Under the pieces are notes generated by a model that worked only from the letters and a program-made list of their open reading frames with translations, was not told where the DNA came from and did no database searches. A stretch of DNA of 32,000 nt, taken from positions 196,824-228,823 of the forward strand of contig NZ_CAAJGK010000107.1 of assembly GCF_900996245.1 (NCBI RefSeq), written 5' to 3'. Both the position numbers and the translations under genes were made by a program. Position 1 is the first letter of the stretch. Each line of letters starts with the position of its first letter. The stretch is from Paraburkholderia sp. BCC1886 (GTDB lineage Bacteria; Pseudomonadota; Gammaproteobacteria; Burkholderiales; Burkholderiaceae). Of the stretch, positions 2,896 to 20,439 are shown piece by piece.

Positions 2896-3693
2896 TCAGG
2901 CGGCGGCGCGGGCTGCGTCGCGGGTTTGTCCCAGCCAGGCGAGGCCGGCGGCAGTCGTCGTGCGCGGTTTGTATTCGCAGCCGACGTAGCCTTCGTAGCC
3001 GAGCGTGTCGAGCAGATCGAAGAGGAACGGATAGTTGATCTCGCCCGTGCCCGGCTCGTTGCGCCCCGGGTTATCGGCGAGCTGGATATGCGCGATCTGC
3101 AGCAGATTCTTTTTGATGGTCGCCGCGAGTTCGCCTTCCATGCGTTGCATGTGATAGATGTCGTATTGCAGGAACAGATTGTCCGAGCCGACCGCGCGAA
3201 TCACGTCGAGCCCTTCGCTGGAACGTTTCAGTGCGAAGCCCGGAATGTCGTACGAGTTGCACGGCTCGACCAGCAGCCGGATGTTCGCGCGGTTCAGTTC
3301 GGCCGCGGCGAAACGCAGGTTCTCGACGATCGTCGTGCGCGCCTGGTCGGCGTCCACGTTCGCGCCCGGAATGCCGACGAGGCAGTTCAGTTGCGGCACC
3401 TTCAACGCCTTCGCGTATTCGATTGCATGGCCCACGCCGTCCCGGAACTCGCTCACGCGATCCGGCAGGCAGGCGATGCCGCGTTCACCCGCTTCCCAGT
3501 TGCCGGCGGGCAGGTTGTGCAGCACGAGTCGCAAACGGTTCTGCTGCAGACGTTCGCTCAGCTCGGCGATTTTATACGGGTAGGGAAACAGGAATTCCAC
3601 GGCGTCGAAGCCCGCATCCGCAGCGGCCGCGAAACGGTCGAGGAACGGCACTTCGTTGAACAGCATCGTGAGGTTGGCAGCAAATTTCGGCAT
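2896..3693 (-). CDS. hyi: Hydroxypyruvate isomerase
   Basis: 'MPKFAANLTMLFNEVPFLDRF' is the typical Hyi N-terminus, with TIM-barrel xylose-isomerase-like motifs. The start is moved to the ATG at 3693, giving 265 aa. It lies between gcl and glxR. Confidence 0.85.
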   Translation of the reverse strand: MPKFAANLTMLFNEVPFLDRFAAAADAGFDAVEFLFPYPYKIAELSERLQQNRLRLVLHNLPAGNWEAGERGIACLPDRVSEFRDGVGHAIEYAKALKVPQLNCLVGIPGANVDADQARTTIVENLRFAAAELNRANIRLLVEPCNSYDIPGFALKRSSEGLDVIRAVGSDNLFLQYDIYHMQRMEGELAATIKKNLLQIAHIQLADNPGRNEPGTGEINYPFLFDLLDTLGYEGYVGCEYKPRTTTAAGLAWLGQTRDAARAAA

Positions 3694-3741
3694 GGTGCGA
3701 AGGTCTCTCTGGTCGGTCGGATGAAGGGATGAAACTTGGTC

Positions 3742-3783
3742 TTGCAATCAGTCGTGCAATCAGTCTCGCAATCAGTCGTGCAT

Positions 3784-3789
<6 letters not shown>
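3742..3789. repeat. 12-bp tandem repeat x4 (ttgcaatcagtc / gtgcaatcagtc / tcgcaatcagtc / gtgcattcagtc)
   Basis: Read directly. It fills the gcl-hyi intergenic space, and the last unit contains the gcl stop codon (3784-3786). Confidence 0.9.
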
Positions 3790-5559
<1,770 letters not shown>

Positions 5560-7828: not shown

Positions 7829-8281
7829 ATGCAAATCATTCTTCTGGAAAAAGTCGTCAATCTGGGTAACCTGGGCGACATCGTGAAGGTCAAGGACGGT
7901 TACGCACGTAACTTCCTGATCCCGAAAAAGCAGGCTCGTCGTGCAACGAAGGAAGCGCTGGCTGAATTCGAAGTTCGCCGCGCTGAACTCGAAAAGACCG
8001 CCGCTGAAAAGCTGGCAGCCGCTCAGGCTCAAGGCGAAAAGCTGGCAGGCTCGACGGTGCAAATCGGTCAGAAGGCTGGCGTCGACGGCCGTCTGTTCGG
8101 CTCGGTGACCAACGCCGACATCGCCGACGCTCTGGTCAAGCAAGGCTTCGCAGTGGAAAAGGCGCAAGTGCGTCTGCCGGAAGGCCCGCTGAAGATCGTG
8201 GGCGACCACGCAGTTCAGGTCTCGCTGCACACCGACGTTCTCGTCGAAGTGACGGTGGCCGTGCTGGGCGAACACGTCTAA
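7829..8281 (+). CDS. rplI: 50S ribosomal protein L9
   Basis: '[32 protein letters not shown]' is the L9 N-terminal signature. Confidence 0.95.
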
Positions 8282-8329
8282 AGACGCAAAGCAGCTGCCA
8301 GCCGGGTTGCTGGCAGATGGCTTAAGAGA

Positions 8330-8363
8330 GGCAGGGGCCGGGTGACCGGCCCCTGCCTTTTTT
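8330..8363 (+). terminator. Rho-independent terminator after rplI
   Basis: A 12-bp GC stem (ggcaggggccgg / ccggcccctgcc) with a 4-nt loop is followed by T6 (8358-8363). An additional upstream hairpin lies at 8295-8316. Confidence 0.75.
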
Positions 8364-8438: not shown

Positions 8439-9827
8439 ATGAACGCACCGTCCAAAGATCCCCAACTCGAGTCGCTAAAAGTCCCGCCGCATTCGATCGA
8501 GGCCGAGCAATCGGTGCTGGGCGGCCTGCTGCTCGACAACGCGGCATGGGACCGCATCGCCGACTTCCTGTCGCAGAGCGATTTTTATCGCTACGACCAT
8601 CGGCTCATTTACGAACACATCGGCAAGCTGATCGCGGCCACGCGCCCGGCCGACGTGATCACCGTGTACGAGTCGCTCGGCACCGCGGGCAAGGCGGAAG
8701 AGGTCGGCGGGCTCGCCTACCTGAATGCGCTGGCGCAAAACACGCCGAGCGCAGCCAATATCCGCCGTTACGCGGAAATCGTGCGCGATCGTGCCGTGTT
8801 GCGCCGGCTGGTGTCGGTAGCCGACGAGATTTCCGCCGACGCGTTTAATCCGCAGGGCAAGGAAGTGCGCCAGTTGCTGGACGAGGCCGAATCGAAGGTG
8901 TTCTCGATTGCCGAAGACGGCGCGCGCGGCACCCAGGGCTTTCTCGAGATTGGACCGTTGCTGACCCAGGTCGTCGAGCGTATCGACACGCTATATCACA
9001 CGGCTAATCCGAGCGACGTGACCGGCACGCCGACCGGCTTCGTCGATCTGGACCGTATGACGTCCGGCATGCATGGCGGCGAGTTGATCATCGTTGCAGG
9101 GCGTCCGTCGATGGGTAAGACCGCGTTCTCGATGAATGTCGGCGAGTACGTTGCAGTTGAATACGGTTTGCCAGTAGCGGTGTTTTCGATGGAAATGCCC
9201 GGCTCGCAACTGACCATGCGGATGCTCGGCTCGGTTGGCCGGCTCGACCAGCACCGGATGCGAACCGGGCGATTAACCGACGAAGATTGGCCGAAGCTGA
9301 CACATGCCGTGCAGAAGATGAGCGAAGCGCAGATTTTTATCGACGAGACCGGTGGTTTGAATCCGATGGAACTGCGCTCCCGCGCGCGCCGGTTGTCGCG
9401 GCAATGCGGCAAGCTCGGCCTCATCATCATCGATTACCTGCAGTTGATGAGCGGTTCGTCGTCAGCCGGTGAAAACCGGGCGACCGAGATCTCGGAAATC
9501 TCGCGCTCGCTCAAAAGTCTCGCCAAGGAACTCGATGTTCCGGTCATCGCGTTGTCGCAGTTGAATCGTGGACTGGAACAGAGGCCGAACAAGCGGCCGA
9601 TCATGTCGGATCTGCGTGAATCCGGCGCTATCGAGCAGGATGCGGATGTGATCCTGTTCATCTATCGCGACGAAGTCTACAACCCTGATAGCCCCGACAA
9701 AGGCACTGCGGAGATCATCATCGGCAAGCAGCGGAACGGCCCGATCGGCCCTGTTCGACTGACTTTCCATGGTCAATACACGAAGTTCGATAACTTTGCG
9801 GGCGCGCAAAACTTCTACAGCGATTGA
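8439..9827 (+). CDS. dnaB: Replicative DNA helicase DnaB
   Basis: 'PPHSIEAEQSVLGGLLLDN' is the N-terminal domain motif. Walker A is 'GRPSMGKTAF'. Also present are 'IIIDYLQLM' and 'LSQLNRGLEQRPNKRP'. Confidence 0.95.
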   Translation: MNAPSKDPQLESLKVPPHSIEAEQSVLGGLLLDNAAWDRIADFLSQSDFYRYDHRLIYEHIGKLIAATRPADVITVYESLGTAGKAEEVGGLAYLNALAQNTPSAANIRRYAEIVRDRAVLRRLVSVADEISADAFNPQGKEVRQLLDEAESKVFSIAEDGARGTQGFLEIGPLLTQVVERIDTLYHTANPSDVTGTPTGFVDLDRMTSGMHGGELIIVAGRPSMGKTAFSMNVGEYVAVEYGLPVAVFSMEMPGSQLTMRMLGSVGRLDQHRMRTGRLTDEDWPKLTHAVQKMSEAQIFIDETGGLNPMELRSRARRLSRQCGKLGLIIIDYLQLMSGSSSAGENRATEISEISRSLKSLAKELDVPVIALSQLNRGLEQRPNKRPIMSDLRESGAIEQDADVILFIYRDEVYNPDSPDKGTAEIIIGKQRNGPIGPVRLTFHGQYTKFDNFAGAQNFYSD

Positions 9828-9980
9828 TCCGCCAAAGCAGACGACAGCGTCAAGGGAACTGCAAGCAGTAACTGCGGCTCATGTTGTAACGACGCTGTCA
9901 AAAGTGCGGTAGCGATCCCGGACCGGTACAATGTGGCGGTTTTATGTCAGCCAAAAACGTGACTTATCTCCGGGATCCCA

Positions 9981-10018
9981 ATGTTCGGTCGATTCATGCC
10001 CACCGCGGGCAAGTTTCT
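9981..10018 (+). repeat. Left copy (attL-like) of the 38-bp imperfect direct repeat: orphaned native 5' end of the DUF47 gene
   Basis: The left copy atgttcggtcgattcatgcccaccgcgggcaagtttct matches 18803-18840 at 32/38 positions. The identical 13-bp core ttcatgcccaccg sits at 9993-10005. The stub encodes MFGRFMPTAGKFLGKTSR-stop (9981-10037). Confidence 0.8.
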
Positions 10019-10205
10019 AGGGAAAACTTCGCGATAGGCGCATTCCTATCATGCAGTCCCCGTTTTTAAGACCTTGAAAAGTCTAGATTTTTTGAGAAAG
10101 TGCGATTGGAGCATCTGTAACGCACGAGTCACAAGTACGTATTTTTTACGTACGTACGCCCCTGAACTTCGGTTACTTTGCGTACGCAAAACCACCGGGG
10201 GCCAC

Positions 10206-10722
10206 ATGACATCAAACCTGAAATTCAAGACCGCGCGGGCCAAGCTGGAACCGCGCCGTGCCCCTTACTGGTCCGCCTAAGCTTGGCGTACTTATCGGCT
10301 TCCGAAAGGGGGCAGCAACAGGCGGAACGTGGATCGGTTGCACTCGCGACGCCAGCGGCACGTACCAGTTCACGTCACTGGGAAGCGACGCCACGAAGGA
10401 ATACGACGAAGCCAGCCGGGAAATCGCCAAGTGGGCGGAGGAACTGGCTAAGGGCGTCCAGAACGACCGGAAATTGACGGTTGCCGACGTATGCCGCGCC
10501 TATGTCGCTAATCGCCGGATCGAGAAGGGCGTTACCACGGCATACGACGTTCAGAAGCGCTTTGAGCGATATGTATTCTCGGAGACATGCGCTATCCGCA
10601 AAGGGGAAAAGATGCCCAGCGGACGGAAGAAGCACGTTGAGGCGTTTGTGTATGACCGACGTATTGGAGATATCCCGTTCGCCAAACTTCAGCCGGGCGA
10701 CGTTCAGCAGGATCAACTATGA
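10206..10722 (+). pseudogene. Tyrosine-recombinase (phage-type integrase) N-terminal remnant, frameshifted and 3'-truncated
   Basis: Frame 1 reads 'MTSNLKFKTARAKLEPRRAPYWSA-stop' (to 10280). It continues in another frame as 'KLGVLIGFRKGAATGGTWIGCTRDASGTYQFTSLG...', resembling arm-binding and N-terminal integrase regions. A frameshift lies near 10278 and a stop at 10722. There is no room before 10918 for a catalytic R..HxxR..Y domain. Confidence 0.6.
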
Positions 10723-10744
10723 ATAACCCACAAGAAGCCCTTAA

Positions 10745-10918
10745 AGCAAAAAACTCACTAAGCCTCTGTCTGACGAACTGGTTCGCGTGAACATCGAAGT
10801 CACACCGCAAATGCGCGAAGACCTGAAGGCGTACGTGCGCGCGAATAACGCGACCATCGCCAAGGTATTGCGCGCGATGTTTGAACTTCACCTATATCCG
10901 GAAAATCCGGTGCAGTAA
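10745..10918 (+). other. Short open frame with ribbon-helix-helix-like sequence; possible gene fragment
   Basis: 'KPLSDELVRVNIEVTPQMREDLKAYVRANNATIAKVLRAMFELHL' has a beta-strand/helix/helix pattern typical of CopG/RHH proteins. There is no ATG before 10811; possible starts are GTG 10787 or CTG 10766. It is not in the ORF track because it is under 60 aa. Confidence 0.3.
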
Positions 10919-10940
10919 TGTTCCAGCCCACACGACCGAC

Positions 10941-11291
10941 CTAGTCAGTCTTGGGTATCTTTCGCAAGGGAACGAAATGCTCGCCGTCATAAGCGTTGGT
11001 AACAGCATGTCCGTCACTCTTTCGCATTCGCACGAAAAAGAGTGTTGGTGAAGTATTGGTTGCGCCGCCACATTCCGCTGAATGATTTTCGCGGACGCGC
11101 ACCTCGTAACTCTTGCCTTGGTCGAACGTATCGAAGAAGAGGCATTCGGTCCTGTCCGTCGAGAGCTGATATTTAGTAACCAGCTTTGAGGCTAGTAACG
11201 CTGCTGCATTGTCGTCCGGCACCGCCAGCGGTTTTGCGCAGGCTGACGCGCAGGTAACAAGGAGCGCAACTGCAACCGTCCATCGGGTCAT
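10941..11291 (-). CDS. Small exported protein (signal peptide or lipoprotein), candidate cognate partner/immunity of the upstream GH73 hydrolase
   Basis: The N-terminus 'MTRWTVAVALLVTCASACAKP' is a signal peptide with possible lipobox Cys. Its ATG overlaps the stop of the GH73 gene (ATGA at 11288-11291). I recognise no domain. Confidence 0.6.
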   Translation of the reverse strand: MTRWTVAVALLVTCASACAKPLAVPDDNAAALLASKLVTKYQLSTDRTECLFFDTFDQGKSYEVRVRENHSAECGGATNTSPTLFFVRMRKSDGHAVTNAYDGEHFVPLRKIPKTD

Positions 11292-11791
11292 TGCGATTGC
11301 CCCGCATCGTACTGGTCGAGATTGTGCGCGCGGATTATGGCATTCAGTTTCGTTGCGTAGTGCTGGTCAGTCGCATAGCCGCCGTGCTGAAGCGCAATAG
11401 CGCACTTGCTGGCACTCCGTTGCGTGTAGCAAACCCGGAATTTCGGGTTGCTGCTGATGGTCCGGGCGTAATCGTCTGCGGCATCATCAAAACCTGTGTA
11501 TGCGCGGAACGTTCCCTGTATCTGTACGGACGCCCCATTCAGAATTTCGTGCGTGGTGAACGTCGCTGAACTTCCGTCCGGTGCGCGCCCCTTCACGCCG
11601 AAATAAGCGTTGCCAACTACGCGGCGTCCCCAGTTCGTTTCCAGCGCAGATTGCGCGAGGACGATTCCCGCCGGGATGCCAAATCGCCGCTGGATCGCTT
11701 GCGCCTTGGCAAGATGATCGGCAATAAACGCGGTTACGTAAGCCGGTGAAGACGGTGCTGCCTTGGATTTATGTGCGTGGTGTTCAGGCAT
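11288..11791 (-). CDS. GH73 family peptidoglycan hydrolase (FlgJ-type N-acetylglucosaminidase domain), no signal peptide
   Basis: 'GIVLAQSALETNWG...NAYFGVKG...FRAYTGFDDAADDYARTISSNPKF...GGYATDQHYATKLNAII' matches the glucosaminidase/GH73 pattern, including the catalytic Glu context. The start is set at the ATG at 11791 ('MPEHHAHK'), giving 167 aa. Confidence 0.8.
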   Translation of the reverse strand: MPEHHAHKSKAAPSSPAYVTAFIADHLAKAQAIQRRFGIPAGIVLAQSALETNWGRRVVGNAYFGVKGRAPDGSSATFTTHEILNGASVQIQGTFRAYTGFDDAADDYARTISSNPKFRVCYTQRSASKCAIALQHGGYATDQHYATKLNAIIRAHNLDQYDAGQSQ

Positions 11792-11984
11792 TTGGCAATC
11801 CCACTGAAAGCAAATAATACAAAGACTGTAGCAGAGCGGTTGGTTTGACGAAACTAGGCTAGCGCTCCGTTTCCCCACTTAATGCGTAGTGAATAGCTAG
11901 CCGTGCGGTACCCCAACTACATCCAAATAATTCGCTAAGGTATTTTTTTGGGCAGCTCGAATTCCGTATTTGTTTTATGCCTTG

Positions 11985-12578
11985 TTACCCCCAACAATCA
12001 CAATCTGCGCCGCAGCCTGGGGGCATTGAGCATTCATATGCAACCGGAGGATTGCTTAAATCGGTTGCCTGATACCGAACTCTGCCGCTATCAATTGGAG
12101 GTTCCCACGAATAAATAACTCCTTTGTCACGTTCGTGGCAGTGGTAACAGTGCATGTATTGATTAAATTTTTCATAAAGGAAATCATGAACTATCTGTTT
12201 AGCAAAGAACGAATTGATAGAAAACCACTCGGTTTTCCGGCCCGTACGGGGATGCCTCATCCGCTCATAGTCCCGTTCAATCATTTCATGCACAGCACCT
12301 TCTATTAACTCAATGGTGCTTGGATGTACACCATCCCTGATCTTGAAAGCACATAGCAAGGCATAGTACCGGTTCTGAGTGCCACCGGCTCTTGATCCGG
12401 GCGTGCCAATGGTCCGCCCAATCTTCGCCTCACGATCATTCCGTGTGTCCAATCCGATGTAAATCCAACCAACATTCGAGTTTTCTTGCCGGAGGCGTTC
12501 TCGTTCAACGTGCGCCTCCTTGAGATCATCATAATCGTTCTCGTCGAAGTCGTCTTCCCAATACTTATTTATTGCCAT
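11985..12578 (-). CDS. T5orf172 (GIY-YIG superfamily-like) domain protein with a Cys/His-rich C-terminus
   Basis: 'GWIYIGLD...AKIGRT...IELIEGAVHEMIERDYERM...GRKTEWFSIN' fits the T5orf172/MUG113 pattern. The N-terminus is acidic (WEDDFDENDYDD). The C-terminus reads 'HCYHCHERD...ECSMPPGCGADCDCWG'. The ATG at 12578 is preferred over the GTG at 12599. Confidence 0.65.
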   Translation of the reverse strand: MAINKYWEDDFDENDYDDLKEAHVERERLRQENSNVGWIYIGLDTRNDREAKIGRTIGTPGSRAGGTQNRYYALLCAFKIRDGVHPSTIELIEGAVHEMIERDYERMRHPRTGRKTEWFSINSFFAKQIVHDFLYEKFNQYMHCYHCHERDKGVIYSWEPPIDSGRVRYQATDLSNPPVAYECSMPPGCGADCDCWG

Positions 12579-12870
12579 TTCGATACCCCAGATTGACACG
12601 GCATATTATATCGAATGAGTTGATTATGTGAGGCTGGGACGCCCAAATGGAACATCTCTCTGGTAACTATGATCCTCGCCTTGGGCGGAAACTAAACTTT
12701 TGATTTTATACAATAATTTTAGTGTTCAAATTTTTCCAAGGCAAGCAAAGCGCCGGTTTGCTCAAATTTTTCGGGTGACCTCTAAAGAAATGGTCTCATG
12801 TTGCCGTAATGTCGGTGGGGCCAGCAGGTTCATTCAATCAACGAAAAATATTGAGATAACGAGGGAACGC

Positions 12871-13956
12871 ATGGAAGTTATGAACGGAACTACTCCGCGA
12901 ACCACAGTGCACGCAATCGGGGACCACGCTCTTCACCGCAATTTACATCAAGCGCAGACCCGTTCTGCTTTTGCCGCGTACCTACTCTGGTTTTTCCTTG
13001 GCTCTGTCGGTGCACACCTGATGTACACGCGCCGCTGGGTCATGCTCACCGCCCATTACCTGTTACTGATTCTGGTAGGTTTCGGTATTGGAATGGTCGT
13101 GCACGGTAAAGAAATTCAAAACGTATTCTTCGGATTGGCAGCAGTATGGGGCGCAATTCTGCCGTTCGGAATCTTTAGCTTCCTCGGCATGTGTATCTTG
13201 TTTGCGCAGGTGAATTACTGCAACGAAGATTCTGCGTTGCGGCTGGCTGGAATCAAGCCGAAGCTCACGCGCGTGACTGAGCGTCTAGTTATCATCGTGT
13301 CAGTCGGTGTTTTTCTGATGTTCGCTGTGATCATGTCGTATTTTCCGGACGCTGTTGTTCGAGACAGTGTGTCCACGACGCCTGACACTGTTACGGCTCC
13401 TTCGGCACAGACACCTTCGGTGCAACCATCGAGTCCTGAGGTCAGCAGCGCGCCTGCCGCGAACGTCGAGCAGGGTAATGTTCAACCCCAAGCAACTGTG
13501 GCAGAAGCGACTTCACAAGTAGCGGCGGTGGCAGAGGCAGCGCCAGCACAAGACCAGCAAGCACCGGCACTGGCACCGGCACAGCCTACGCAGGACAGCG
13601 CTACTCAATCGTTAGACCCTGCTACGGATTTGAACACAACGCCAAATCAGATGTATGGAACAAGTTTCGATTGCGGCAAAAGCCACTCACAGAATGAGTA
13701 TCTGATTTGCCACACGCCGGCACTTGCTATCGCAGACGTGAAGCTTGCTAACTCGGTAACTGCAGCTAAAAACGCAATTGCTCCGACAGACTTGGATGCT
13801 TTCAAGGATCGGATGCGTGGACAATGGAACTTCCGAGAAAAGCACTGCAATGATGTCGCTTGCTTGAATACGTGGTACCAGTATCAAACTAGTACGATGG
13901 CACTCATTGAACAAACCCGGAACGCGGCGGCTCGCGTGGATACTCCACAAAACTGA
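12871..13956 (+). CDS. Multi-pass membrane protein: N-terminal TM2 domain, Pro/Ala/Gln-rich linker, C-terminal LprI/DUF1311-like Cys domain
   Basis: The TM2 motif is 'AAYLLWFFLGSVGAHLMYTRRW'. There are 4-5 hydrophobic helices and a low-complexity linker (APSAQTPSVQPSSPEVSSAPA...). The C-terminal domain reads 'SFDCGKSHSQNEYLICHTPALAIADVKLA...RMRGQWNFREKHCNDVAC'. The start is at ATG 12871, after the RBS GAGGGA. Confidence 0.65.
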   Translation: MEVMNGTTPRTTVHAIGDHALHRNLHQAQTRSAFAAYLLWFFLGSVGAHLMYTRRWVMLTAHYLLLILVGFGIGMVVHGKEIQNVFFGLAAVWGAILPFGIFSFLGMCILFAQVNYCNEDSALRLAGIKPKLTRVTERLVIIVSVGVFLMFAVIMSYFPDAVVRDSVSTTPDTVTAPSAQTPSVQPSSPEVSSAPAANVEQGNVQPQATVAEATSQVAAVAEAAPAQDQQAPALAPAQPTQDSATQSLDPATDLNTTPNQMYGTSFDCGKSHSQNEYLICHTPALAIADVKLANSVTAAKNAIAPTDLDAFKDRMRGQWNFREKHCNDVACLNTWYQYQTSTMALIEQTRNAAARVDTPQN

Positions 13957-13985
13957 TCGTCAATCAGAGTTAGCGAAAGGCGGAC

Positions 13986-14528
13986 ATGCACACCATATTC
14001 CGGCAGGGACCCACAACGGGAGTCAGTCTAGGGCTTTATGATTTTGAAAGAGATTTCAAAAATCTATGTCACCAGCACATGCGGGAGAAACGCGCGCGGG
14101 CCTTCGCCTTCATTTTTTACAATATGAGCGATGGGCCGGTCCGAAAAGCTTTGAAGGCGGATGGATTCAAGGTGTTAAACGCCGCCTCCGGCAAAGACGT
14201 CACCATATATTATTTGCACGAAGGTGCTGAATTCCAGATGAATCAATTCAATCGGCAATTTCTGCGAGTCTTAAACATCAGGGAGCAAGCTTCGCCTCCG
14301 TGTATGGCGTTCTTTCGCGTGAGTGGCGAGTCTATCGAAGACGTTGATATAAAAACCATTGAGCCTAGCTTGCTTGATTCGCACATAATTGTGCAGCAAA
14401 TGGAGCAGCACATACGCGACTATATAAAAGCGTTGAACAGCGAAGGCGATCTGACGGGCATAACTCCTGTTCCGCTTCCGGCTCTGTTCAGGTTGATGGG
14501 GATGATGAGTCGCGCCACTCCGTACTGA
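13986..14528 (+). CDS. Hypothetical protein (180 aa), probably co-transcribed with the TM2/LprI-like gene
   Basis: The ORF lies 29 nt downstream of the previous stop, with an AAAGG RBS. I recognise no domain. It is followed by a hairpin. Confidence 0.55.
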   Translation: MHTIFRQGPTTGVSLGLYDFERDFKNLCHQHMREKRARAFAFIFYNMSDGPVRKALKADGFKVLNAASGKDVTIYYLHEGAEFQMNQFNRQFLRVLNIREQASPPCMAFFRVSGESIEDVDIKTIEPSLLDSHIIVQQMEQHIRDYIKALNSEGDLTGITPVPLPALFRLMGMMSRATPY

Positions 14529-14560
14529 CTGAAATGTAGCGATTCTGCACCGCGCAAGAG

Positions 14561-14587
14561 CCCCGCCTTGGCGGGGTTCCTCAATTT
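14561..14587 (+). terminator. Weak candidate terminator hairpin
   Basis: The stem is ccccgc / gcgggg with a 4-nt loop. It is followed by a T-poor tail (ttcctcaattt). Confidence 0.35.
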
Positions 14588-14775
14588 GAAATATCAAGTA
14601 ATCAACAACAGGGTTTTAACCTTGCCTTCAATCCAGCTAAGCGGCCTGTCGCGCCCGAATCCGCCCGCAACCGGCTCGTTCCTAGCTAGTCCCGGATGCT
14701 AGTATTTCTAGGGGCGTGTTTCCCCCGATCATCGTTCTGGTAAAGTAAACCCGTAAAAACTACACGCTACTCAAA

Positions 14776-14973
14776 ATGCCGATCAAAAAACCGGGATTCC
14801 TTCCTTTGCCGACTGGACGGCTGCCCAGCGGCGCAAGGCCTGTAGTTGGCCCCGTCATCATCACTCCTGGTAGCAAAGCAACGGCGGGTGTCATTGGTCA
14901 ACGCATGCAGCCGGTCCCGAAAGGGAATGGCGGCAATGGGAGCGGCGGCAAGTCTGGTGGCGAGAAGAAGTAG
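14776..14973 (+). CDS. Possible small Pro/Gly-rich protein (65 aa); doubtful
   Basis: An ATG ORF ending 8 nt before the GTG start of the next gene. It has no obvious RBS and a low-complexity sequence (…KGNGGNGSGGKSGGEKK). Confidence 0.25.
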   Translation: MPIKKPGFLPLPTGRLPSGARPVVGPVIITPGSKATAGVIGQRMQPVPKGNGGNGSGGKSGGEKK

Positions 14974-14981
14974 ACCCAAGC

Positions 14982-15665
14982 GTGGCAACTCGACGGGTAC
15001 GGGGCGAAATTCGCGAGTCGTCCGGACAAAAGGATGCGAGGGAGCGCGCAAAGGAGCGCACGCGTATTCACGAAAGGGAGCGCGACAACCTCGCAAAACT
15101 GCGTATATCAAATGCGGAAAACCTAGATAAATCGGTTTTGACTTACTCGGGCGCGGGGCTTGGGTTGTCGCTAGGCTTTCTCAAGGACTTCATTCCCATT
15201 CGGGAAGCCAAGCTTGCTTGGGCGCTGTATGGTTCGTGGATTGCATTCACTGTTGCGATGGTGTTGGTTATTGCTTCGTACGTCGTCAGCCAGATGGCGG
15301 TCGAAGTTCAGTTTGACCGTGCGGAACGTTATTACGAGGACCGCGAGGAAGATGCGCGCGACGAGTGGACCAAGACCGAGAAGGTCGCGCAGCATCTGAA
15401 CGGATGGATATACGCGACGGCATTTGGAGTCGGGCTGTCGCTGACGATTCTCTTTGTGTCAGTCAACTTGAATGGGGCCAACATGGCGAACAAAAGCGAG
15501 AAGGGCGGAAACTGGGCCTTTGCCCAAGATGGGGCAATCGGCACGAAGATGCAGCGAGCTGAGAAAGGTGTCACGGGCGGGAAATTGCAGCCAGTAAGTC
15601 CTGCCACACCGAAACAGCCGACGCCCCAGCCGCAAGCAGGCAATGCACCTCAGAATAAGAAGTAA
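14982..15665 (+). CDS. Three-TM membrane protein with an Arg/Glu-rich N-terminus and a Pro/Gln-rich tail, unknown function
   Basis: A GTG start is the only in-frame start before TM1. Hydrophobic segments are 'VLTYSGAGLGLSLGFL', 'LAWALYGSWIAFTVAMVLVIASYVV' and 'WIYATAFGVGLSLTILFVSV'. It lies 37 nt upstream of the DUF4263 gene on the same strand. Confidence 0.55.
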   Translation: MATRRVRGEIRESSGQKDARERAKERTRIHERERDNLAKLRISNAENLDKSVLTYSGAGLGLSLGFLKDFIPIREAKLAWALYGSWIAFTVAMVLVIASYVVSQMAVEVQFDRAERYYEDREEDARDEWTKTEKVAQHLNGWIYATAFGVGLSLTILFVSVNLNGANMANKSEKGGNWAFAQDGAIGTKMQRAEKGVTGGKLQPVSPATPKQPTPQPQAGNAPQNKK

Positions 15666-15702
15666 TGCTCTGCGACCGTAGCGCTCTACTCGGGGTATTT
15701 CG

Positions 15703-16344
15703 ATGAAACCGAGGCTGGCCTCAGAGGTTTGGGACGAGATTCGCGCGCGTGATCCTCTTCGCGACTTTTATAGCCGCTGGGATACGGTGGACGAATCCGA
15801 CATTGACGCCTTGAGTGATGCGCTGGATTCGGCTACGCGTGAAGAAGATATCCAGCAGTTCCTTCAGGCCAACCCCAAATACCTAATTCAACATCTTGGC
15901 GGGGGACATGGCCGTTGGATCATTCCGAAGCAGCGCCTTGGCGTGCAGCATGTGACGGACTTTATGATCGGAGAACGGGATTCAATGGGTTTCCGCTGGC
16001 AAGCGGTGGAGCTTGAAAGTCCATTGGCAAAGATGTTTACGAAGTCTGGCAATCCGTCTGCCCCTCTAACTCACGCGATCCGCCAGATACAGGACTGGCG
16101 CATGTGGCTCGCGGTGAATCAAAATTACGCTGCACGCGACAGGGGCGAAGACGGCCTAGGCCTCACGGAGATTCATCCGGACGTGCAAGGGTTGATTATC
16201 ATGGGGCGGCGGGCGACAGAGTCTGAAGATACTCGGCGGCTTCGTCGGCAGATAGGGCGCGATAGCAAGATTGAGATTCACACGTTTGATTATCTTATTG
16301 AATCGCTTATTGGACGTGTGAAAAGTCTCAAAAAGTCACTGTAA
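15703..16344 (+). CDS. Short DUF4263 / Shedu (SduA)-like PD-(D/E)xK nuclease-fold protein
   Basis: By-eye match to the DUF4263 pattern: 'EEDIQQFLQANPKYLI', 'HVTDFMIG...WQAVELESPLAKMFTKSGNPSAPLTHAIRQIQDW' and 'GLIIMGRR...IEIHTFDYLIE'. The usual E-x-K reads E-L-E here. Confidence 0.6.
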   Translation: MKPRLASEVWDEIRARDPLRDFYSRWDTVDESDIDALSDALDSATREEDIQQFLQANPKYLIQHLGGGHGRWIIPKQRLGVQHVTDFMIGERDSMGFRWQAVELESPLAKMFTKSGNPSAPLTHAIRQIQDWRMWLAVNQNYAARDRGEDGLGLTEIHPDVQGLIIMGRRATESEDTRRLRRQIGRDSKIEIHTFDYLIESLIGRVKSLKKSL

Positions 16345-16352
16345 CAATACCT

Positions 16353-17480
16353 CTAGAACGGAATGTCGTCGTCCATGAACGGGGGGGGTTGGGTATGGCG
16401 CGGCATTGCGTCAAATCGGCTGTGCAGATTTGCGATAATGATTTCTTGCTTTTCGCGTGAGGCCTTCCTGAAAAGCGTAAGAAAATTTTTCAAAGTATTG
16501 ACTTCGAAATTAGCGCGTTTGCTGTATTTATATGCCCCATTAATAAAGCAGCTTGAAATGGCTGTCGGATTGGGTAGGAAATCTTCAAGCCTTACCTTGC
16601 GATAAATTTCCTCAAGTTTGGTTGCTATGACCGAGGCCGGAGAATGGTATTTTGCGTCTGCCTCAATGGATCTCAGTAGATTGGAGAGGCTATCTGCAAA
16701 TTCAAGATAGCTGTTCCGCTCGCCAGATGAGAAATCGCTGTCAAAATCTGTGGCAAGAATCGCACTTTTCGCTTCGGAGAATGAGCCAATTCGTCCATTC
16801 GGCTCAATCCGGCACATACAATCTAAAAGATCGCCGTGCTTGAACGCTTCAATATGCAGCTCCCGGATGATTTTCTCGAATAGTTTTCCGACAAAGTAGA
16901 CTTCGGTGCGAAAGTCATAAATCGATTCTTTGAATTCGTTGGGTAAGTCGCACCACCAATTCAAGGAAATGCTTTTGTTGTAGTCGCCATCTGAGGTTGC
17001 TTGCTTCCCAAATCCAAAATCTATTATTTTGACGACGTTGCCGGAAGTGATGAGAATGTTGCTTTCCCGGATATCGCGGTGCAATATTCCATTTTTCTCA
17101 AGATAGGCGAAACCATCTATTGTTTGTGTGAAAATATCGTTAATGTTATCTGATGATATGAGTAAGTGCGTTCCAATATCCATGCCGCTCACGTATTCCA
17201 TCAAAATATAGCCAGTATTTTGCTTGGGAAAGAGGTGATAATTGAACACCCGCACGATATTCGGATGATTCAGTAGATGGAGTAGTTTTATCTCTCGGAC
17301 GAAGAGGTCAAAGAATTGAGGGGCGTGTTCTGAATTCGCCGGTTCGTATTTTTTGCAGGCGAAGCGCTCGTTGATAACCGGATCGTGAAGTAGAACGGTG
17401 TTGCCCGTTGCGCCTTGGCCAAGGCGTTTTTCTAGCACGAAATCCTTTTGCCGCACAAATTTGACCACTTGGTTATCCAT
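16353..17480 (-). CDS. Hanks-type Ser/Thr protein kinase with an uncharacterised C-terminal domain and an SSB-like acidic C-terminal tip
   Basis: Kinase motifs present: G-loop 'LGQGATGNTV', 'FACKKY', alphaC 'FVREIKLL', catalytic loop 'HRDIRESN', and 'DFGFG'. The final residues are 'PPPFMDDDIPF-stop', verified codon by codon at 16353-16388. The ATG at 17480 ('MDNQVV') is preferred. The gene is very AT-rich. Confidence 0.85.
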   Translation of the reverse strand: MDNQVVKFVRQKDFVLEKRLGQGATGNTVLLHDPVINERFACKKYEPANSEHAPQFFDLFVREIKLLHLLNHPNIVRVFNYHLFPKQNTGYILMEYVSGMDIGTHLLISSDNINDIFTQTIDGFAYLEKNGILHRDIRESNILITSGNVVKIIDFGFGKQATSDGDYNKSISLNWWCDLPNEFKESIYDFRTEVYFVGKLFEKIIRELHIEAFKHGDLLDCMCRIEPNGRIGSFSEAKSAILATDFDSDFSSGERNSYLEFADSLSNLLRSIEADAKYHSPASVIATKLEEIYRKVRLEDFLPNPTAISSCFINGAYKYSKRANFEVNTLKNFLTLFRKASREKQEIIIANLHSRFDAMPRHTQPPPFMDDDIPF

Positions 17481-17844
17481 CTTCAGCACCCCCCGCCTCA
17501 ATACACATGTTATCCGGGTATTATCCGCTGGTTTGGCCCTAATGTGTCAGGCTCACATAGCTGCTGTCAGTACCATTGAAAGCCGGGCGAAGGTCAGTCG
17601 TGCCCGCTCCGCGCCTTGTCAGTGCTCTTTGCGTGGGAAGCATCGAAACGGTCTGCGAGAGGGCTAGCAGTTGCGGGGCGCGGGCTTCGCGCGACTAGCT
17701 GTCTTGCGCTATCAAACCCTTGCTGGCGACTGCGGCCGATGGCTAGTCAGAATTATCTAAAATGACCTGACTCCAGTCCGAAGATGGTTGGAGTGTCCGG
17801 ATTGCCTGTGAGGCTTTAGACAGGCCAGTCGATGACGAAACGAA

Positions 17845-18594
17845 ATGAACGAGGTATGGATGGAAACCTGCGCGCACAGCAATCTGGCGCTATCGCTCGA
17901 TCGGTGGCAGGAGTGTCACTGGTATCTACACCAGATGGAAGCGAATTACCATGAGCCGGAGCCATTCCGCTATTCATGCAATTCGTTCCTTCGTGCTATC
18001 AAGGAAGTCCCCCAAGCCTTGACTAACGACTTGCAGCGGCATCCCGGCGAGAAGTCAAAAATCAAGCCGTTGCTGGACGCAGTTTCCTCAAACGCCCTCA
18101 TGCAGACGCTTGGCAAGCGACGCGACTTCGTTGTTCACCACGGTGCTCTTCAGCTGAAAAGTCATGGTCGGATTGGAACGACGGAGGGTGCGACAATTAA
18201 GGTCGTCATTCCGTTCGCTGTCTACCCGACTGAGACGTCGGATGAAGCGTATGAGCGTTACAAGGCTATGTGCAAAACGAACAAGGTGCTTCGCGGCTTC
18301 GGGCCAGACTGCGACTCCGCGCCTGCGCTCTGGCGCACTTGGATGATCCCGCAATTCCCTGACCGAGACCTGCTCGACGTAGCGGTTGAAGCCTGGAGGA
18401 CGCTCGGCGAATTGCTTTCCGGTGCTATTGAGGCGTTCGGCGGCGAAAAGCTCGACCTGAGCTTGCCCTGCCGTCATGATCCGGCCCAGGTGCAGATCAA
18501 GCGCTTCAGCCAGTATGAATTCTTCTTGAGTGTCGATGGCATCGACCTGAAGGAGGAAGAGCGGAAATGGCGCGAGCAAGAGGCTAAGGGGTGA
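17845..18594 (+). CDS. Hypothetical protein (about 245 aa) with an Rx4H motif; possible HEPN-like
   Basis: A long ORF with plausible coding composition. An alternative start at ATG 17860 is preceded by GAGG. The motif 'GKRRDFVVHHG' fits Rx4-6H. I recognise no other domain. Confidence 0.55.
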   Translation: MNEVWMETCAHSNLALSLDRWQECHWYLHQMEANYHEPEPFRYSCNSFLRAIKEVPQALTNDLQRHPGEKSKIKPLLDAVSSNALMQTLGKRRDFVVHHGALQLKSHGRIGTTEGATIKVVIPFAVYPTETSDEAYERYKAMCKTNKVLRGFGPDCDSAPALWRTWMIPQFPDRDLLDVAVEAWRTLGELLSGAIEAFGGEKLDLSLPCRHDPAQVQIKRFSQYEFFLSVDGIDLKEEERKWREQEAKG

Positions 18595-18802
18595 CCGACG
18601 CGTGATAGACACGCGTTGCGGGCATCTCTACGTGCCAACGCGTGCGCGCTTTCCGTTAGAATCGCGCATTGTCACGAACCCGACACATAACTTCGGGCCG
18701 AAGTGGATTTACGTACAGATTACGTACTAGGTCTTTTTGATTTCGTGATTGGCGATGTAAGTTGTTGATTTTACACGCAAAATCAGATTATCCGGAGTTA
18801 AA

Positions 18803-18840
18803 ATGTTTGGTAGGTTCATGCCCACCGAGGGCAAGTTCTT
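18803..18840 (+). repeat. Right copy (attR-like) of the 38-bp imperfect direct repeat, forming the functional 5' end of the DUF47 gene
   Basis: The right copy is atgtttggtaggttcatgcccaccgagggcaagttctt, with the 13-bp identical core at 18815-18827. The upstream 18728-18802 is AT-rich island DNA carrying the RBS GGAG. Confidence 0.8.
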
Positions 18841-19429
18841 TGAAATTTTCAATGCGCACGCAACGTGCATCGTCTCGGCGAGCCACGAACTCGAACTGCT
18901 GATCGACAATCTGCAGGATGCCGAAACCCACAAGCAGAATGTGCAGAAGGCCGAAAAGGCCGCTGACAAGCTCACGCACGAAACCATCGATCTGCTGCAC
19001 AAGACTTTCATCACGCCGCTCGACCGCGACGAAATCCACAAGCTCATCACCACGATGGACGACATCCTCGACCTGATGGAGGACGTCGCCACGGCTATTT
19101 CTTTGTACGACGTGCAATTCGTCACGTCCGAGGCGAGTCAGCTGGCGCACATTTGCACGGCGACTTCCGAGCGCGTGCAATACGCGGTGAGCCTGCTGTC
19201 GGACATGAAGCAGGCCAGCCAGATCCTGAAGGCCTGCGAAGAAATCGACCGCCTCGAATCGGAAGCCGACCGGGTGCTGCGTTCGGCCATGTCGAAGCTC
19301 TTCCGCGAAGAAGACAACGTCAAGACGCTGATCAAGCTGAAAGCCATTTACGAACTGCTCGAAACGATCACGGACAAATGTGAGGACGTAGCGAACATCA
19401 TCGAAGGCATCGTGCTGGAAAACGCCTAA
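18803..19429 (+). CDS. DUF47 / PhoU-like phosphate transport regulator (Pit accessory protein)
   Basis: 'MFGRFMPTEGKFFEIFNAHA...' is typical of the TIGR00153/DUF47 family. Its stop overlaps the pit ATG (TAATG). Confidence 0.85.
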   Translation: MFGRFMPTEGKFFEIFNAHATCIVSASHELELLIDNLQDAETHKQNVQKAEKAADKLTHETIDLLHKTFITPLDRDEIHKLITTMDDILDLMEDVATAISLYDVQFVTSEASQLAHICTATSERVQYAVSLLSDMKQASQILKACEEIDRLESEADRVLRSAMSKLFREEDNVKTLIKLKAIYELLETITDKCEDVANIIEGIVLENA

Positions 19430-20439
19430 TGCAATCGATCCAACTCGCTATCTGGGTCGTCGTCGGTCTCGTCGCCGTGGCGCTGATCTTCGACTTCATG
19501 AACGGTTTTCACGACGCGGCGAATTCCATCGCCACGGTCGTTTCGACCGGCGTGTTGAAGCCGCAGCAAGCCGTCGCGTTCGCGGCGGCGTTCAACGTCA
19601 TCGCTTATTTCGTGTTCCATCTGAAGGTGGCCGCTACTGTCGGTAAAGGCACGATCGACCCGGTCATCGTCGACCATTACGTGATTTTCGGTGCGCTGGT
19701 CGGGGCGATCGGCTGGAACATCATCACGTGGCATTACGGCATTCCGTCCAGTTCGTCGCATGCGCTGATCGGCGGTCTGGTGGGCGCCGCGCTGGCCAAA
19801 TCGGGTTGGGGGTCGCTCAACATCGATGGCTTGCTAAAAACAGTAGCTTTCATTTTCATCTCGCCGCTGCTTGGTTTCGTGCTCGGTTCGTTCTTCATGC
19901 TGGCGGTGTCGTGGATCTATTTCCGCACGCCGCCGAGCAAGGTCGACCGGCGCTTTCGCCGGCTGCAACTGGTGTCGGCGGGGTTGTATAGCCTGGGACA
20001 CGGCGGTAACGACGCGCAGAAAACCATCGGCATCATCTGGATGCTGCTGATCGCGACCGGCTATGCGTCGTCGCTTGCCGACGCGCCGCCGCTGTGGGTG
20101 ATCGGCGGCTGCTATCTGTCGATGGGCGTGGGAACGCTGTTTGGAGGCTGGCGCATCGTCCGCACGATGGGGCAGAAAATCACCAAGCTCAAGCCGGTAG
20201 GCGGTTTCTGCGCGGAGTCGGGCGGGGCGATCACGCTGTTTACCGCTTCGTGGCTCGGCATTCCGGTGTCCACCACGCACACGATTACCGGCGCCATCGT
20301 TGGCGTCGGCGCGACGCAAAAGCTCAGTGCAGTGCGCTGGGGCGTGGCCGGCAACATCGTATGGGCGTGGATTCTGACGATTCCGGCCTCCGCGGCGCTC
20401 GCTGCGGCCGGCTGGTGGGTCGGCCACCGGTTGATGTAA
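19429..20439 (+). CDS. pit: Inorganic phosphate transporter, PiT family
   Basis: The 'FDFMNGFHDAANSIATVV' signature is present, with a second half 'GHGGNDAQKTIG'. It is a multi-pass membrane protein. Confidence 0.9.
   Translation: MQSIQLAIWVVVGLVAVALIFDFMNGFHDAANSIATVVSTGVLKPQQAVAFAAAFNVIAYFVFHLKVAATVGKGTIDPVIVDHYVIFGALVGAIGWNIITWHYGIPSSSSHALIGGLVGAALAKSGWGSLNIDGLLKTVAFIFISPLLGFVLGSFFMLAVSWIYFRTPPSKVDRRFRRLQLVSAGLYSLGHGGNDAQKTIGIIWMLLIATGYASSLADAPPLWVIGGCYLSMGVGTLFGGWRIVRTMGQKITKLKPVGGFCAESGGAITLFTASWLGIPVSTTHTITGAIVGVGATQKLSAVRWGVAGNIVWAWILTIPASAALAAAGWWVGHRLM

Follow-up and report, generated by a model that had tools for sequence, protein, structure and literature searches.

The DNA analysed here is a 32,000-nucleotide (nt) window of the Paraburkholderia sp. 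BCC1886 genome (contig NZ_CAAJGK010000107.1, positions 196,824 to 228,823; positions below are those of the window). Within it, dnaB is separated from a phosphate-transport operon, consisting of a DUF47/PhoU_div gene and pit, by a segment with a low guanine-plus-cytosine (GC) content. This segment, from about 10006 to 18814, is very probably a decayed integrative genomic island that was inserted site-specifically at the start of the DUF47 gene. Its borders are defined by comparison with related genomes that carry the uninterrupted site, and its left end holds the remnant of an integrase whose orthologs occupy the same position in other species.

An insert at the first codons of the DUF47 gene

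The gene order is rplI, dnaB, a left repeat, 8.8 kb of low-GC DNA, a right repeat that coincides with the start of DUF47, and pit. An earlier, sequence-only reading of the window had described 38-nt direct repeats with 32 identical positions and a perfect 13-bp block, each copy opening with an ATG. The repeats are found at 9981-10018 and 18803-18840 (both + strand). They disagree at six of their 38 nt and share the block TTCATGCCCACCG without mismatch at 9993-10005 and 18815-18827, so that both the coordinates and the mismatch count were reproduced. The pair is the top-ranked direct repeat between 8000 and 21000 (47 nt, 81% identity, start-to-start spacing of 8822 bp). When up to one mismatch is allowed, TTCATGCCCACCG occurs at these two sites only in the 32-kb window, against a mean of 0.09 matches in 100 shuffles, none of which contained two. 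The ATG of the left copy leads into an 18-codon stub (9981-10037), and that of the right copy is the true start of the 208-residue DUF47 protein.

Comparison with relatives that lack the insert, which the same reading had proposed as a check, reveals the empty site. A search of 24 genomes of the genus, with the 3' end of dnaB, the spacer and the left repeat as the query, found dnaB, a homologous spacer and one repeat copy followed directly by DUF47-pit in 22 of them. The single copy of the congeners equals the left junction (attL) up to and including the 13-bp block and the right junction (attR) from the block onward, which supports the reading of the segment as an insertion; recombining the left part of attL, the core and the right part of attR in silico restores the single-copy congener sequence (22/24). 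The empty-site comparison thus divides each junction into two parts. In attL (9981-10018), the native ATG and eight codons run up to and through the core and are followed by element-derived sequence, while attR (18803-18840) consists of an element-supplied ATG and three codons, the core, and then native sequence. The native sides follow the genus consensus, and all six mismatches fall on the insert-facing, element-derived sides, in line with the proposed crossover within a short core. Left of the core, attR differs from the native sequence at three positions, all synonymous (TTC to TTT, CGA to AGG); MFGR is kept, and the start of the DUF47 protein, MFGRFMPTEGKF, is unchanged.

The composition of the segment agrees with the claim that the insert is mosaic and less GC-rich than its surroundings, with a kinase and a T5orf172 gene as very AT-rich parts. 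GC content is 51.8% for 10006-18814, compared with 61.7% and 63.5% in the flanks and 62.9% in the 7.68-Mb host genome, and it reaches its minima in the genes for the kinase (44.9%) and the T5orf172 protein (47.3%). The target was also correctly recognized as a protein-coding gene and not a transfer RNA (tRNA) gene: the site is the start of DUF47, and no tRNA gene is present there. None of the insert-free relatives carries both repeat copies, and the segment is not conserved across the genus with native composition. On the left chromosomal flank, dnaB (8439-9827, +; Pfam DnaB_C 2.5e-108, DnaB N-terminal domain 1.1e-35) is syntenic in all congeners; on the right, the intact DUF47 gene (18803-19429, +; PhoU_div 2.8e-31) shares 90-91% DNA identity with its congener counterparts and is followed by the second gene of the operon, pit, which encodes a PHO4-family phosphate transporter (19429-20439, +; PHO4 2.7e-96).

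These features can be accommodated in a single sequence of events. A tyrosine integrase with an N-terminal arm-binding region would have recombined the attachment site of the element (attP) with a chromosomal site (attB) formed by the first ~30 nt of the DUF47/PhoU_div gene, directly downstream of dnaB, with strand exchange in or beside TTCATGCCCACCG. The attP would have brought its own ATG and first codons, so that the encoded protein stayed unchanged after integration but the DUF47-pit operon came to lie behind DNA of the island. Integration would have left the original spacer and ATG at attL, as the 18-codon stub pointing into the integrase gene. Later, a frameshift would have broken the integrase, and an internal deletion would then have removed its catalytic domain and anything that lay between it and a DUF2274-like gene.

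Several points weigh against this account. The empty site is taken from other species, at 78-86% DNA identity, and an exact look-up of the DUF47 protein found no conspecific without the island on record. The variant of attP present in the window was not found, with one mismatch allowed, in 400 family genomes, metagenome contigs or viral contigs, and because no second copy of this variant was found, differences already present in attP are inseparable from later mutation. Furthermore, repeat position 26 (A/C) lies inside the 7-nt spacer CACCGAG (positions 21-27), the equivalent of an anticodon loop. The anticodon loop is thought to be the overlap region, and integrases tolerate mismatches between attP and attB within the overlap poorly. 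If the spacer is the overlap, either attP differed at position 26 and the heteroduplex was resolved, or the position mutated later in the functionless stub.

Three other explanations were considered. The bare existence of a repeat is all that speaks for an ancestral segment, or a local duplication of the DUF47 start, that was lost in the other species without any insertion. This can practically be discounted, as it is refuted by the single-copy empty site in the 22 congeners and conflicts with a GC content 10 points under that of the genome, with the integrase pseudogene and conserved attP arms at the ends, and with the fact that the same sequence bounds unrelated islands in other species. It is also improbable that the island arrived already integrated, through homologous recombination of a larger dnaB-island-DUF47 fragment from a related strain: neither dnaB nor pit shows a break in similarity or composition, even though such a transfer would fit an island that is present while its integrase is dead, the several positions at which the spacer of G000 differs from the sampled congeners, and a comparison made with other species, none of them conspecific. 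Such an arrival would in any case change only the place of the site-specific event and not its nature.

The remaining alternative concerns the mismatches. The island may have integrated with a perfect block of ~32-38 bp, in which case all six mismatches would be later mutations and the 13-bp block would mark no crossover. All seven other elements with a readable attL do have a perfect 29-32-bp block from the ATG, the island has existed long enough for its integrase to be lost, the attL stub is free of selection, and position 26 falls within the loop-equivalent spacer. However, the six differences all lie on element-derived sides, a distribution expected by chance over the four flank segments at about (1/2)^6; the attL stub, though free to drift, is unchanged in its native 12 nt; and six changes in 76 nt would amount to ~8% divergence since integration. 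Later mutation of a perfect block is therefore considered rather unlikely. If instead the crossover took place in or beside the core of an attP that already differed from attB, the imperfect repeat of the window copy narrows the possible strand-exchange region.

One further feature of attR was observed. A terminator scan of both junctions flagged, as the sole terminator-like match at attR, the sequence TGCCC-ACCGA-GGGCA with a T-rich run at 18819-18833, at the start of the DUF47 coding sequence. This match is the inverted repeat of the att core and not necessarily a terminator.

Integrase remnant, attachment arms and reuse of the site

The integrase remnant that had been noticed at the left end is real and homologous to integrases at the same site in other genomes. 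It was delineated by tblastn with the integrase of P. phenazinium LMG 2247 (G009), by BLASTP and by its reading frames as a tyrosine-integrase pseudogene at 10206-10722 (+). The remnant opens with an ATG at 10206, is frameshifted near 10270-10280 and loses homology at ~10710, retaining about residues 13-193 of a protein of ~408-436 residues; the catalytic domain is absent. BLASTP identity is 41% to the G009 integrase (2e-32) and 47% to that of P. oxyphila G102 (4e-44), and the closest relatives are DUF47-type integrases. Pfam Phage_integrase (PF00589) gives no match for the remnant, from which the half with the catalytic R-K-H-R-H/W-Y residues is missing, and the intact relatives score above the Pfam threshold, with the ARPGE, RHT and NYG positions invariant in their alignment.

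From 10716 onward, the window is 81% identical at the DNA level to positions 8173-8360 of locus L089 (G123), inside a 108-residue DUF2274-like gene that follows an AAA_25 gene. Because homology switches at ~10710/10716, an internal deletion has fused the two genes, each at a point in its middle, and the feature at 10716-10918 (+) corresponds to the 3' part of this small gene fused to the broken integrase. At E <= 1e-20, the remnant is the sole match to this integrase family in the host genome, so the island is most likely fixed in place and probably immobile. With its frameshift and internal integrase deletion, the window copy documents the fixation of such an island. Another pseudogenized copy was observed in Paraburkholderia sp. 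SIMBA_030 (L076), where an integrase near the G216 type is interrupted by seven stops in the matching frame and a DUF47-start motif is absent within 4 kb.

In both Paraburkholderia and Burkholderia, the start of DUF47 is a recurrent hotspot for islands. The integrase family is represented in 20 of 213 Paraburkholderia species genomes, and in nine of the 213 (window included), as well as in Burkholderia sola, the integrase adjoins the attL between dnaB and DUF47. The window has only the pseudogene in this position; orthologous integrases occupy it in eight other Paraburkholderia species and are intact except for one TGA in the P. dilworthii copy. In P. phenazinium LMG 2247, a different insert sits in the same place, with a perfect 32-bp repeat from the ATG (L033:1547-1578) and an intact 408-residue integrase, passing the Pfam Phage_integrase threshold, immediately inside attL. 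The six islands with both ends mapped, including that of the window, measure 8.8, 14.5, 14.8, 36.5, 45.7 and 47.1 kb, the largest being that of P. xenovorans LB400 (chromosome 1, about 2.211-2.258 Mb). Islands at this site have only the integrase and the att arms in common, and their cargo is unrelated, the integrase being the sole match in a tblastx comparison. The islands of LB400, P. phenazinium, P. dilworthii, P. strydomiana, P. oxyphila and Burkholderia sola share with the window the attB, the integrase clade, the arm motifs and their distances, and an integrase gene (int) directly inside attL. Unlike the window, they have an intact integrase (P. dilworthii with its single TGA), a perfect 29-32-bp repeat and larger, unrelated cargo.

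The DUF47-pit start next to dnaB is thus an attachment site shared by ten or more Burkholderiaceae species, the model strain LB400 among them. Since variable, defense-type cargo accumulates there, the site is useful for island finding and for defense-gene mining in large genomes. A literature search found no paper that links DUF47 or pit to an integrase site or describes the site of the LB400 island; as far as searched, the attachment-site family is undescribed, and its members are otherwise typical integrase-borne islands.

Two other occupants of the site were inspected. The P. phenazinium island (L033, G009:C46, 3150-13232) carries a C5 cytosine methylase, a 606-residue AAA_15/AAA_21 ATPase, a resolvase, a P63C-domain protein and a 1213-residue SIR2_2 protein, and this cargo is of the defense type. 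In G010 (L035, G010:C1:218000-225000, about 2916-4910), dnaB and DUF47 are separated by a hipBA-like pair, consisting of a 418-residue HipA-like protein (L035:3510-4766, -) and a 94-residue helix-turn-helix protein (3219-3503, -), with families assigned by eye from the translation. The sequence just before the DUF47 ATG of G010 resembles the right arm of the G216 island, and no attL copy is present; the insert looks like a second, differently decayed island at the same site. Pfam searches of two small intact DUF47-site islands returned almost no annotation.

The attachment arms are conserved as well. Arm motifs were compared between the window and six intact elements, with positions counted from the A of the ATG; the doubled motif has 11-bp phasing. 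A left doubled motif, CGTAY-N6-CGTAY (10138-10153, +), lies before int within a CGTAC-rich stretch (10130-10186), at +158 in the window compared with +140/141 in all six intact elements. The right doubled motif, CGTAC-N6-CGTAC (18712-18727, +), is at -91, and at -90 or -91 in five of the six. A second right-arm element, the box TTTCCnnTAnAAT (18650-18662, +), is found at -153 in the window; five relatives have it at -151 to -153 and the sixth at -142. Counting both strands, the 7.68-Mb genome contains just 38 copies of the doubled motif. By sequence, the window island still has the attP arms of the family despite its dead integrase. The doubled motifs are candidate arm-type integrase binding sites, by analogy with the doubled attP motifs described for other integrase clades (PMC10111431).

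Upstream of the ATG, the resemblance between the two junctions ends. The sequence-only reading had proposed that similarity continues for 35-45 nt upstream of both ATGs as a mimic of the 5' region of the target gene, and local alignment and in-register tests place this similarity at chance level. Copying of the promoter region was rejected: when the 45-80 nt preceding each ATG are aligned locally with gaps, the top score is 12, a value equalled or exceeded by 41-82% of shuffles and by 62% of island 60-mers. The last 12 nt before the ATGs show a weak in-register match (7/12, P ~0.0125), and P rises to 0.07-0.11 over 20-60 nt. In other elements of the DUF47-site family, the upstream sequence is unrelated. 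What the element copies is the start of the coding sequence; the promoter region is not reproduced.

The native dnaB-DUF47 spacer (9828-9980, +) aligns with the spacer of congener empty sites and is now severed from the operon. Across the window and the empty sites, the spacer contains a conserved TACAAT and one or two copies of GTTTTATGWCRGC, and in one species subgroup the two copies are 22 bp apart. These motifs are possibly the promoter and operator of the DUF47-pit operon; in the window, they face the stub and the dead integrase. Scans of both junctions called no consensus sigma-70-like promoter, including at the right-arm box. With regard to translation, the attR of G009, G226, G147 and G064 (L034, L060, L064 and L063), which belong to one sub-lineage, has no recognizable Shine-Dalgarno sequence in the element-supplied stretch directly upstream of the DUF47 ATG. 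A GGAG at -10 to -7 is provided by the islands of the window and of G216.

Likeness of the core to the tRNA-Arg(CCG) anticodon arm

Within the genus, every remaining member of the integrase family (45-49% identity) is located next to the 3' half of tRNA-Arg(CCG). The identity block of these islands terminates inside the anticodon arm, and int is again preceded by the doubled CCGTAC motif. More distant homologs, from other families of the order, are associated with the anticodon loops of tRNA-Arg(CCG), tRNA-Val(CAC), tRNA-Glu(UUC) and another tRNA. This location corresponds to the anticodon-centered tRNA subsite that Islander lists as class 'A' (PMC4383910). In a maximum likelihood tree of 25 integrases, rooted at the midpoint only, the DUF47-targeting enzymes form one group (100/100), which is nested together with the tRNA-Arg(CCG) targeters in a clade supported at 99/98, and those that target Val, Glu and the other tRNA fall outside this clade.

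The core of the DUF47 site, TGCCCACCGAGGGCA, has the layout of an anticodon arm, with a 4-bp inverted repeat around 7 nt (TGCC, 7 nt, GGCA). Read in the orientation that the integrase defines, it agrees with the tRNA-Arg(CCG) arm at 12 of 15 positions, and such matches occur at 2.0e-5 per position in the genome. In the tRNA sense orientation, the match is 13/15, and the next best of the 63 tRNA genes in the genome reaches 10/15. The shared positions include the CCG, and in both the DUF47 and the tRNA-Arg classes, the identity block ends 0-2 nt after GAGGGC.

The integrases of the two classes are nearest relatives, and the classes have the arm motif beside int and the core layout in common, tRNA-Arg(CCG) islands being found in Paraburkholderia and other Burkholderiales. 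They differ in that the target of the DUF47 class, the attB of the window island included, is a coding start and not a tRNA gene, the restored part is a 5' end instead of the 3' half of a tRNA, and the target gene is co-oriented with int, whereas it is antisense to int in tRNA-Arg(CCG) islands. The simplest reading of these sequence comparisons is that the target switched once, from the anticodon arm of tRNA-Arg to a similar sequence at the DUF47 start; both the direction of this change and a part played by the shared positions in recognition are inferred. On balance, we slightly favor the view that the DUF47 start became an attachment site by imitating the tRNA-Arg(CCG) anticodon stem-loop, and that the lineage switched once and then radiated over Paraburkholderia and Burkholderia. 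If this is correct, the native upstream region points into int and the operon would be read from the right arm of the island, and integrase expression could be coupled to the regulation of the phosphate-transport operon. In one P. oxyphila genome (G102; L056, L048), DUF47-type and tRNA-Arg(CCG)-type integrases of the same family are found together, so the two specificities coexist in one cell.

Contrary to the sequence-only reading, integration into a coding gene is not unusual, and coding sites and 5'-end replacement are both known (PMC12424338, PMC4482086). The TIGER/Islander survey placed 43.4% of mapped islands in coding sequences (PMC12424338), and in dusA islands, the 5' end is replaced by the element as a rule (Farrugia et al. 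2015, PMC4482086). Like the DUF47 island, dusA islands and prophages use a tyrosine integrase, enter the 5' end of a conserved coding gene and supply a new one, leave the displaced 5' end at the other junction, and have imperfect, semiconserved repeats and variable cargo. The window shows the same 5'-end replacement, with an element-derived ATG and three codons at attR and the displaced start at attL. It differs from dusA systems in its target, DUF47/PhoU_div before pit, in a crossover within the first 10 codons, and in the decay of the window copy, and the DUF47-site family is known here from sequence alone. Elements of the icd type and similar ones also keep the target functional through an attP copy of part of the gene, and their identity block is longer than the ~7-bp exchange region (PMC10111431), but the replaced gene part, the targets and the integrase lineages are different.

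What the DUF47 family adds to these systems is the apparently traceable descent of its attachment site from a tRNA anticodon arm. Through the link to tRNA-Arg(CCG) and the retained core similarity, it offers a testable example of an integrase lineage that would have moved from a tRNA gene to a protein-coding gene, which is relevant to predicting and re-targeting integrase specificity.

Cargo of the island

The cargo begins with a 116-residue protein without a Pfam, PADLOC or NCBIfam match (10941-11291, -), in a module 84% identical in G123, and a GH73 glucosaminidase-domain protein (11288-11878, -; Pfam Glucosaminidase 1.5e-25). These are followed by the T5orf172-domain protein (11985-12599, -; Pfam T5orf172, 25.5 bits, cut-off 20), which lies in a gap of the G123 homology. 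On the opposite strand, a membrane protein with a weak TM2 match (12700-13956, +; Pfam TM2 1e-05, 26.1 bits, just below the 27.9 cut-off) belongs to a module 77% identical in G123, and the module common to G123 also includes a 180-residue protein for which Pfam, PADLOC and NCBIfam were null (13986-14528, +). A 227-residue protein with sub-threshold Pfam matches only (14982-15665, +), in a module 79% identical in G154, lies upstream of a short Shedu-type nuclease-domain protein (15703-16344, +; Pfam SduA_C 1.8e-15, PADLOC SduA 3.3e-23). The latter has the DUF4263 nuclease domain characteristic of SduA and, at 213 residues, comprises little more than the C-terminal domain. The Ser/Thr protein kinase (16353-17501, -; Pfam Pkinase 9.9e-32) matches the PADLOC models mad6 (1.9e-32) and PD-T4-6 (2.4e-26), and these defense-model matches cover the kinase domain only. 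A 249-residue protein, null in Pfam, PADLOC and NCBIfam (17845-18594, +), is 73-85% identical to sequences at other loci in G090, G022 and G131. Together, the family matches suggest a role of the cargo in defense.

Individual modules of the cargo turn up apart from one another in other species, at different loci and with 70-85% DNA identity, and this scattered homology fits the mosaic composition of the insert. The G123 locus, which shares the most cargo, was considered as the same island elsewhere and rejected: it is not at a DUF47 site and has no integrase of this family. Window positions 10926-11862 and 12728-14657 are collinear with the G123 array, and the T5orf172 gene occupies the unmatched stretch between them (11862-12728). 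G123 encodes a different T5orf172/MUG113-type gene elsewhere (L089:8389-9147), which suggests that T5orf172 genes move independently within such islands.

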